DNA of 64,000 bases from Escherichia coli. Lineage in GTDB: Bacteria; Pseudomonadota; Gammaproteobacteria; Enterobacterales; Enterobacteriaceae. Under the pieces are notes generated by a model that saw only the letters and a list, made by a program, of their open reading frames with translations, searched no databases and was not told the DNA's origin. The stretch lies in the NCBI RefSeq assembly GCF_050920415.1, contig NZ_CP169309.1; one strand, written 5' to 3'. Every line of letters begins with the position of its first letter. Position 1 is the first letter of the stretch. Positions 57,287-57,869 of the stretch are shown one piece after another. The position numbers were made by a program, and so were the translations under genes.

Positions 57287-57634
57287 ATGATAAAAAAGAT
57301 TTTTATAACGTCTTTAAGTATCCTCTGTATGGGGGTAATTGTGGATTATCCTCATATCGACAGCAGAATATCGACAAACGAAATAATCAATTGTCTTTCC
57401 AAGACTATGCAGAAAAGTGGTTATATAATGGATCTAAATGGAACTAAACTACCAATTAATGCAAAAGAATTCGCAACATACAAAATGTCAAAATACACCG
57501 GTTCATTCTGGATAGAATATTCAACAGAAGGAAGGCCAACAAGAGATGTTGGTATAATAAATGCAACAAATGATAGTTATAATATCTTGAACGATACATT
57601 GCAATTTTGTAGCAATATCATGGCAAAATATTAA
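57287..57634 (+). CDS. hypothetical exported or membrane-anchored protein (115 aa) in a very AT-rich segment
   Basis: ATG ORF with hydrophobic N-terminus (IFITSLSILCMGVIV); strongly AT-rich codon usage unlike flanking core genes; no recognisable RBS. Confidence 0.45.
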   Translation: MIKKIFITSLSILCMGVIVDYPHIDSRISTNEIINCLSKTMQKSGYIMDLNGTKLPINAKEFATYKMSKYTGSFWIEYSTEGRPTRDVGIINATNDSYNILNDTLQFCSNIMAKY

Positions 57635-57650
57635 CATCAACAGTTAGTAT

Positions 57651-57869
57651 GTGTACATCTCTGTGAGAAACCGTCGTAATATCAGTCAGCAACACCCCCC
57701 TTTTGGATGCAATTTCCACGACATAAAGGTGAAAGGTATCCCGGATTACGAAGGAAGTCGTCGCGACAAACAAATTTTCAGTGGACATAAAACAGTAAAT
57801 CAGGTGTTGATTTACGATCGTAAAAAAATCACACCAACACTGGATTTGCCGCTCGTGGTTAGTAAGTAG
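57651..57869 (+). CDS. hypothetical small protein (72 aa)
   Basis: ORF 16 bp downstream of the 115-aa ORF on the same strand; no homolog recognised. Confidence 0.25.
   Translation: MYISVRNRRNISQQHPPFGCNFHDIKVKGIPDYEGSRRDKQIFSGHKTVNQVLIYDRKKITPTLDLPLVVSK

Follow-up and report, generated by a model that had tools for sequence, protein, structure and literature searches.

The 64,000-nucleotide stretch of the Escherichia coli chromosome analysed here (contig NZ_CP169309.1; hereafter the window) holds, between hyaA and yccA, a 2.65-kb prophage remnant at the tRNA-Ser gene serT (the islet), and within it two small open reading frames (ORFs), ORF1 and ORF2, which had been singled out from the sequence alone (the original prediction). 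We propose that ORF1 is a moron, an accessory gene of a deleted lambdoid phage that has survived intact, which would be expressed in lysogeny and encode an exported periplasmic protein, that ORF2 is the stub of an integrase gene, and that the islet is a prophage remnant; we put the probability of this explanation as a whole at about 0.6. Taken by its parts, the islet and ORF2 are ordinary, and ORF1 is a new and unnamed representative of a well-known kind of gene, the accessory genes by which prophages encode small exported proteins.

Reading frames, conservation and selection

ORF1 extends from an ATG at 57287 to a stop at 57634 and ORF2 from a GTG at 57651 to a stop at 57869, and the two frames of 115 and 72 aa, 16 bp apart (57635-57650), are thus present in the sequence as had been stated. 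Their DNA is also more AT-rich than the core genes, as claimed, with GC contents of 31% for ORF1 and 42.5% for ORF2 compared to 50.5% for yccA and 55.2% for hyaA; the islet as a whole has 40.7% GC and the entire window 50.9%. The composition of ORF1 falls in the lowest 0.3% of 348-nt windows across the 64 kb, the AT-richest stretch of which lies at 56980-57420, and ORF2 is less extreme. When the segment 57000-57900 was shuffled (n = 2000), an ORF of at least 115 aa arose in 12 shuffles (0.6%) and one of at least 72 aa in 346 (17%), so that the length of ORF1 is unusual at such a composition and that of ORF2 is not.

A word-indexed search with ORF1 returned nine relatives, all from Escherichia, at 57-99% identity (expectation values, E, of 3e-21 to 1e-58), and a profile search of 1.84 billion cluster representatives added relatives of 106-134 aa at identities down to 21%; more divergent copies were taken directly from E. 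coli prophage and plasmid loci. One giant profile match, P0012 (2624 aa), was rejected as spurious because it consists of low-complexity repeat sequence, and a second, P0017 (3294 aa), which matched over many short stretches, was assumed to be spurious in the same way. The profile built from the narrow ORF1 alignment found only 4 loci in IMG/VR, and all named cluster members of the family are called "hypothetical protein".

In a codon comparison of four lineages, the ratio of nonsynonymous to synonymous substitution (dN/dS) of the mature part of ORF1 was 0.12-0.38 in all informative pairs, with dS of 0.5-1.6. Five residues are invariant in the 16-sequence family alignment (C36, Y46, G72, W75, and C108) and five more are nearly so (P56, E61, G82, G89, and L105). 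The original prediction was to be refuted if the frames were not conserved among related islets; ORF1 withstands this check, its frame being kept at 21-87% identity with the dN/dS given above. A protein-identity look-up listed the 99-100% variant in approximately 88 assembly blocks, and all eight of the places displayed are the same serT-yccA islet with the ORF intact, some of them with a tandem complete prophage. ORF1 is intact even in a strain whose neighbouring ORF was hit by an insertion sequence (IS) element. Taken together, these patterns of substitution argue strongly that ORF1 is a real, conserved protein-coding gene under purifying selection, and of the two small genes originally proposed it is the one that stands.

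Predicted export of the ORF1 product

The N-terminus of ORF1, MIKKIFITSLSILCMGVIV, starts with MIKK, whose two lysines (K3 and K4) are followed by approximately 15 hydrophobic residues (IFITSLSILCMGVIV; best 10-residue Kyte-Doolittle mean of 2.8). The hydrophobic N-terminal segment noticed earlier is therefore present, and it proves to be family-wide and signal-peptide-like. Of the 16 aligned members, 13 have a basic (K/R) and hydrophobic N-terminus with small residues after it, despite divergence of the sequence itself (MRFIIFIVIILMGSQSAYA↓D and MLKKLYITPLVFFSLGA↓NS, the arrow marking predicted cleavage), while the remaining three alignment rows begin inside the hydrophobic stretch and so have no basic n-region. 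Predicted cleavage sites in the family include AYA↓D (P0018), LGA↓N (L005), and TGA↓V (P0004), as well as LAA↓.

Public records hold three forms of the protein, of 115 aa (WP_264744800.1), 101 aa (WP_484082800.1, from an ATG at 57329), and 97 aa (WP_024166241.1, from a GTG at 57341). We favour the 115-aa form because of the family N-terminus, the Shine-Dalgarno motifs that precede the long-form start in relatives of 48-49% identity (AGGAAGG in L004 and GGAG in L023), the disorder of residues 1-20 in the structure model, and the invariant cysteine pair. On this N-terminal pattern the product is probably exported by a Sec-type route. A lipobox ([LVI][ASTVI][GAS]C with a conserved Cys) is absent, ORF1 having S-I-L-C14 in its place, and C14 itself is absent in P0008, L005, P0018, P0021, and others; judged by sequence, the product is not a lipoprotein.

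Predicted fold and family searches

An AlphaFold2 model built from the 16-sequence alignment had a predicted local distance difference test (pLDDT) score of 86, above 90 over residues 21-110, and a predicted template modelling (pTM) score of 0.75. Residues 1-20 were disordered and of low confidence, as expected of a signal peptide. The modelled order of elements is beta(23-25), alpha(30-43), beta(46-48), beta(59-66), beta(69-77), beta(85-91), and alpha(95-113), and the mature domain of approximately 97-99 aa is modelled as a compact sandwich of two alpha/beta layers (beta-alpha-beta4-alpha). Each modelled helix bears one of the invariant cysteines (C36 on helix 1 and C108 on helix 2), so that a stabilising disulfide could form after export.

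ORF1 and its distant relatives gave no significant match in Pfam, PHROGs, NCBIfam, PADLOC, or a sequence profile search of the PDB, and a viral structure library held no match to the model. Homology to superinfection-exclusion or envelope-blocking proteins (Cor, Llp, Sim, SieA/B, and Imm) or to anti-phage defence was likewise not found for ORF1 in PADLOC, PHROGs, NCBIfam, and Pfam at the thresholds used. The role in superinfection exclusion or virulence suggested in the original prediction gains no support from these searches and is not contradicted by them. Foldseek against AFDB50 returned uncharacterised Escherichia and Salmonella proteins as its top matches, one of them called "putative exported protein" and several wrongly labelled "50S ribosomal protein L1", followed by weaker matches (E of 3e-6 to 2e-2) to Enterobacterales "lipoprotein" and DUF3568 models. 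In size and topology ORF1 is similar to the DUF3568/Flpp3-like small lipoproteins and to two-layer sandwiches of the KA1/DUF302 type. Unlike the former it has no lipobox, and neither a Pfam DUF3568 match nor a strong fold match places it in that family; KA1 domains are eukaryotic cytoplasmic modules, so that this resemblance is one of fold only. No paper in the literature searched mentions the ORF1 RefSeq accessions, nor was anything found on STM1967, our guess at the LT2 locus tag of the chromosomal Salmonella paralogue.

Position of ORF1 homologues in prophages

In lambdoid and Shiga toxin (Stx) phages, the slot downstream of the antiterminator gene Q carries cargo such as stx, phage tRNA genes, and nanS-p. 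In six prophage-type loci (L003, L004, L006, L012, L023, and L028), the ORF1 homologue occupies the stretch from Q to the lysis genes, on the strand opposite to the late genes. These loci range over 32-87% identity and over Q proteins of two families unrelated to each other (PF03589 and PF06530), and phage tRNA genes flank the homologue in L003, L004, and L006. The ST866-type prophages (83% protein identity) have the order Q, methyltransferase stub, homologue, tRNA-Arg, tRNA-Gly, NanS-p, and holin, and the O166:H15-type prophages, together with a 262-kb plasmid record with the same phage genes (49%), have Q, homologue, tRNA-Gly, tRNA-Ile, tRNA-Arg, TerB, and holins. In a third E. coli prophage type (48%) the homologue directly follows Q, in a fourth (61%) the order is Q, methylase, DUF3927, homologue, PmrD-like gene, and holin, and in a Salmonella prophage with a Q of family PF06530 (32%) it is Q, HNH, and homologue. 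The antisense position of the family in the Q-downstream cargo slot is thus fixed. The PmrD-like gene of the fourth type (PF11183; L028 3849-4172, + strand) is a second apparent moron, lying in the Q-to-holin interval on the same antisense strand as the ORF1 homologue.

ORF1 has the marks of an accessory gene, namely the Q-to-lysis slot in six loci, presence in 27 of 5426 complete E. coli genomes, and a GC content of 31% against 51% for the window. Its antisense orientation in the late region is that of conversion genes expressed in lysogeny, such as lambda bor. In the ST866 prophage (L003), an intrinsic, tR'-like terminator stands just after Q on the late strand, so that late transcription in a repressed prophage would stop short of the ORF1 homologue. 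Upstream of ORF1 itself, a candidate sigma-70 promoter, TTGAAA-17 nt-TATAGA, can be read from the sequence and is kept in the ST866 prophage as TTGAAA-17-TATACA.

Weighing the alternatives for ORF1

Several observations weigh against reading ORF1 as an exported protein expressed in lysogeny, and those at the N-terminus bear on the start codon. No Shine-Dalgarno motif precedes the ATG at 57287, and a GGGGG motif stands 6-7 nt before the in-frame GTG at 57341, the start chosen by the NCBI Prokaryotic Genome Annotation Pipeline (PGAP), which gives 97 aa without a signal peptide; the third annotated start, the ATG at 57329, gives 101 aa. ORF1 could on these grounds be a shorter cytoplasmic protein without a signal peptide, as WP_024166241.1 and WP_484082800.1 have it. 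We consider such a protein unlikely, since the 18 codons upstream form an open, hydrophobic stretch in all homologues, among them L005 and P0018, which have no internal start there, since some homologues carry canonical AxA-type sites and two (L004 and L023) have their Shine-Dalgarno motifs before the long start, since the two invariant cysteines suit an oxidising compartment, and since WP_264744800.1 annotates the 115-aa form.

In C-M-G↓V this copy has just one, weak cleavage site, and its N-terminal segment may thus stay uncleaved and act as an anchor; over the first 19 codons the sole unsaturated pair, with very few sites, gives a dN/dS of 0.63. A membrane-anchored protein (an uncleaved signal anchor) or a lipoprotein, instead of a soluble periplasmic one, would agree with the weak site, with the Cys at position 14 in the closest relatives, and with the "lipoprotein" and DUF3568 models among the weak fold neighbours. 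Such a product is nevertheless improbable: S-I-L precedes the Cys where L-[AS]-[GA] would be expected, C14 is lacking in P0008, L005, P0018, and others, the hydrophobic stretch of approximately 15 residues is short for a membrane span, and relatives have good sites for signal peptidase I.

The remaining points concern expression, spread, and function. A consensus promoter scan reports no + strand promoter directly upstream of ORF1; the candidate at 57210-57238 was missed because its -10 hexamer lacks the final T. The same scan reported no terminator for ORF1. The gene is rare, with the 27 carriers given above, it occurs in essentially no sequenced phage isolates, and in the libraries searched neither its fold nor its sequence matched a known envelope-acting, exclusion, or virulence factor. 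The copy in this islet may thus be an inert, silent relic of a real family, for instance in AT-rich DNA silenced by H-NS, that persists only because the lineage is young. The islet carriers are nearly identical, differing only by R27K in strain N96, and so offer no test of selection within the islet; its neighbours there are pseudogenes, and the scan found no strong promoter. The ORF and all its invariant residues are nonetheless intact while every protein-coding neighbour in the islet is truncated or doubtful, and the DNA upstream of it, candidate promoter included, has been kept and matches that of intact prophages, which leaves the silent relic with a smaller but real chance of being right. 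We retain the reading of ORF1 as a surviving accessory gene whose product is probably exported.

ORF2 is the stub of an integrase gene

The last 57 residues of ORF2 matched the 339-aa tyrosine integrase of a serT prophage of strain N96 in BLASTP with 52 of 57 identities (91%; integrase residues 283-339, E of 2e-34), and they match PHROG 14425 at profile positions 115-160 of 161. Upstream of this tail, the DNA past the ORF1 stop is collinear with non-coding DNA of the ST866 phage to approximately 57697, where the homology breaks and gives way to the integrase fragment; the initial ~16 codons of ORF2 are therefore non-coding DNA that is also found 3' of the ORF1 homologue in intact prophages. 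By these alignments ORF2 is not a gene, as the original prediction had it, but a deletion-junction chimera of ~16 non-coding codons and the last 57 codons of an integrase. A full-length tyrosine recombinase of this kind has ~340 aa, with a core-binding domain and a complete R-K-H-R-H/W-Y catalytic domain; in ORF2 only residues 283-339 of 339 are present, and approximately 83% is missing (all of the N-terminal and core-binding domains and the greater part of the catalytic one), while what is left is the C-terminus of an integrase that targets serT.

The shared strand and the 16-bp gap would also suit a two-gene operon of small proteins. This arrangement can be discounted almost entirely, and was already refuted by the integrase BLASTP match and the ST866 alignment: the C-terminal 57 residues of ORF2 are 91% identical to the end of an integrase, over its first ~16 codons it aligns with DNA that is non-coding in intact prophages, up to the break near 57697, the DNA that follows the ORF1 homologue in intact prophages is unrelated, and an ORF of 72 aa arose in 17% of shuffles.

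The islet and its boundaries

The gene order around the islet is hyaB-hyaA, serT, the foreign segment, and then yccA, tusE, yccX, and rlmI. A repeat search found a 97-nt direct repeat, 85% identical between its two copies (55325-55421 and 57974-58070), flanking the islet and composed of the 3' half of serT and its terminator, a hallmark of phage integration at a tRNA gene. The islet combines these tRNA 3'-end repeats with a Lom fragment, phage tRNA genes, the small RNA STnc100, and the integrase stub (Table 1), and by DNA alignment it is collinear with the intact ST866 prophage; its location on a phage remnant, as first supposed, is borne out by the serT repeat and this phage-derived content. 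The islet is what is left of a lambdoid prophage at serT, nearly all of which was lost via large internal deletions. Since the end of the integrase adjoins the right attachment (att) repeat and the end of Lom the left one, there were two such deletions, which spared only the tRNA/STnc100/ORF1 block. Only 2 of the 5426 complete E. coli genomes hold at least 80% of the islet.

Table 1. Features of the serT islet (positions in the window).
Feature	Position	Strand	Basis
Intact tRNA-Ser(UGA) gene serT, prophage attachment site, left islet edge	55292..55379	+	ARAGORN; Rfam tRNA 57.5 bits; PGAP annotation of identical locus
Left 97-nt repeat copy, att core remnant	55325..55421	+	Repeat search
Ail/Lom outer-membrane protein gene, internal fragment, pseudogene	55638..55862	-	PGAP "missing N-terminus and C-terminus"; Pfam PF06316 on called product
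Hypothetical ORF, 132-139 aa, WP_157945130.1	55939..56358	-	ORF list; PGAP
Prophage small RNA STnc100 (RF02076)	56284..56476	-	Rfam 111.7 bits vs gathering score 47, E 1e-24, full-length model match
Phage tRNA-Gly(UCC)	56786..56856	-	ARAGORN, Rfam, PGAP
Phage tRNA-Arg(UCU)	56860..56936	-	ARAGORN, Rfam 61.5 bits, PGAP
Degraded tRNA-Ile(CAU)-like remnant, ileZ-like	56937..57010	-	Local alignment to tRNA-Ile genes of L004 and L005
Candidate sigma-70 promoter for ORF1	57210..57238	+	Read from sequence
Predicted Sec-type signal peptide, codons 1-16, MIKKIFITSLSILCMG, putative cleavage position	57287..57334	+	n/h/c-region pattern across family; model low-confidence at residues 1-20
ORF1, 115-aa precursor gene of predicted small exported protein, uncharacterised family	57287..57634	+	Frame conservation, purifying selection, 16-member alignment, structure model
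Spurious 5' part of ORF2, non-coding DNA	57651..57697	+	DNA alignment with ST866 prophage
Tyrosine integrase 3' remnant, last 57 codons, pseudogene	57699..57869	+	BLASTP; PGAP "integrase, incomplete, missing N-terminus"; PHROG 14425
Right 97-nt repeat copy, partial serT 3' half and terminator, right islet edge	57974..58070	+	Repeat search, 85% identity

The Ail/Lom fragment derives from the tail-end side of the former prophage. The hypothetical ORF of 132-139 aa has a weak match to a tail-fibre PHROG (E of 0.005), overlaps STnc100 at its 5' end, and in one strain (L037) is split by an IS3-family insertion. It was considered as a fragment of NanS-p, the esterase whose gene occupies the same position in the intact prophage, and rejected since it has no similarity to it; the ORF is of uncertain standing, probably a remnant, and may not be a gene. 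STnc100 has been described as a prophage-encoded small RNA related to the PasD small RNAs of Stx-type prophages (bioRxiv 10.64898/2026.05.13.724894). The tRNA-Ile-like remnant aligns from the D-arm to the 3' end, with the CTCATAA anticodon loop intact and the acceptor stem diverged, and was not called by ARAGORN or Rfam; together with tRNA-Arg(UCU) and tRNA-Gly(UCC) it is reminiscent of the tRNA clusters of Stx-type phages. A second, complete prophage with a DUF4224 protein and a 339-aa integrase lies in tandem at serT in L002 (strain N96; 1-2674), L030, L032, L036, and L037; these tandem prophages, and an integrase stub 91% identical to the end of their integrase, indicate that related phages have used serT repeatedly.

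Relatives of ORF1 outside prophages

Members of the ORF1 family also occur on Salmonella plasmids, where one (L009) adjoins a chaperone-usher operon and another (L021) lies in an IncI1 backbone in the nikB region. On an 87-kb E. coli plasmid (p2 of strain cM8a), phage tRNA-Ile and tRNA-Arg genes lie between IS elements together with a 114-aa member that RefSeq leaves unannotated (L005 5388-6281), from which it appears that the block of tRNA genes and ORF moved as a unit outside a prophage.

A chromosomal member is found in Salmonella between yedF and fliE, in a cluster of 797 member sequences at 90% identity. One such P0016-type protein, approximately 31% identical to ORF1, is encoded convergently with fliE at L022 5923-6309 (CP074266.1), a record labelled as a plasmid that nevertheless holds flagellar core genes; UniRef and AFDB entries of this cluster bear the wrong name "50S ribosomal protein L1". 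With 21% identity to ORF1 at an E of 9e-4, P0021, from a Salmonella contig (L015), is the most distant member and its homology is marginal. It ends a co-directional cluster (L015 660-5414) of an HMW1C-like glycosyltransferase, a DUF2919 protein, and a CaiF/GrlA-type regulator, a context unlike that of the phage loci. No common partner was seen across the neighbourhoods of the distant members (the chaperone-usher operon, IncI1 nikB, the HMW1C/GrlA cluster, TauD, and yedF-fliE).

Proposed role and relation to known prophage cargo

In the mechanism that we propose, the ORF1 product would be exported by Sec, probably disulfide-bonded, and periplasmic. The orientation against late transcription suggests that the ORF1 homologue would be transcribed from its own promoter in the lysogen and that, upon induction, Q-modified polymerase would read through the gene in antisense and so oppose or silence it. 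Its most likely role would be that of a periplasmic or envelope-acting protein that binds a component of the envelope and benefits the lysogen, possibly by excluding other phages or by protecting against an external agent. Any one specific envelope-protective or exclusion role is doubtful, because nothing ties the ORF1 fold to a known activity.

The closest parallel in kind is provided by lambda Bor and other lambdoid morons, which share with ORF1 the small size (approximately 100 aa, predicted exported), the late region, the opposite strand, the atypical composition, and the expected expression in the lysogen. Bor is a lipoprotein with a lipobox whose gene follows the lysis genes, while ORF1 has no lipobox and showed no similarity to Bor in sequence or fold in the libraries searched, and its family lies between Q and the lysis genes. 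With the cargo downstream of Q (stx, tRNAs, and nanS-p) the family shares the slot itself, beside phage tRNA genes of the ileZ/arg type, and with the Stx subunits ORF1 shares a signal peptide, here a predicted one. Unlike stx, ORF1 is a single gene without an A-subunit partner and runs opposite to the late operon, so that it would not be co-induced with lysis as stx is; its modelled beta-alpha-beta4-alpha sandwich also differs from the oligonucleotide/oligosaccharide-binding fold of the Stx B pentamer. An AB5 subunit like Stx B, which was considered for ORF1 because of the genomic slot, was thus ruled out by strand, by fold, and by the lack of a partner gene.

It is noteworthy that no library searched (Pfam, PHROG, and NCBIfam) holds a model of the ORF1 family, and that the family stands antisense in the stx slot across divergent phages, with chromosomal and plasmid relatives in Salmonella. 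Tentatively, and as a possibility that we rate well below the reading of ORF1 itself, ORF1 may found a family not described before, whose small, exported, disulfide-bonded proteins would belong to the mobile elements of Escherichia and Salmonella, with its genes antisense in the Shiga toxin slot, also carried on Salmonella plasmids, and in one case fixed in the Salmonella chromosome between yedF and fliE. Its members might serve as periplasmic lysogenic-conversion factors in phage exclusion, protection from toxins or colicins, or interaction with a host, and would be switched off by Q-dependent late transcription.

For annotation, two of the three public starts of ORF1 remove the signal peptide, and a corrected gene model together with a family definition would improve the annotation of E. 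coli and Salmonella prophages; ORF2 holds a lesson for genome scans, in that "small ORFs" of its type beside att sites usually turn out to be stubs of integrase genes. Should ORF1 be expressed and its product exported, it would be another lysogenic-conversion gene in the Q-downstream slot shared with Shiga toxin, phage tRNAs, and NanS-p, and the consistent antisense placement of its family would provide a simple and testable example of cargo that is expressed in the lysogen and shut off by late transcription.

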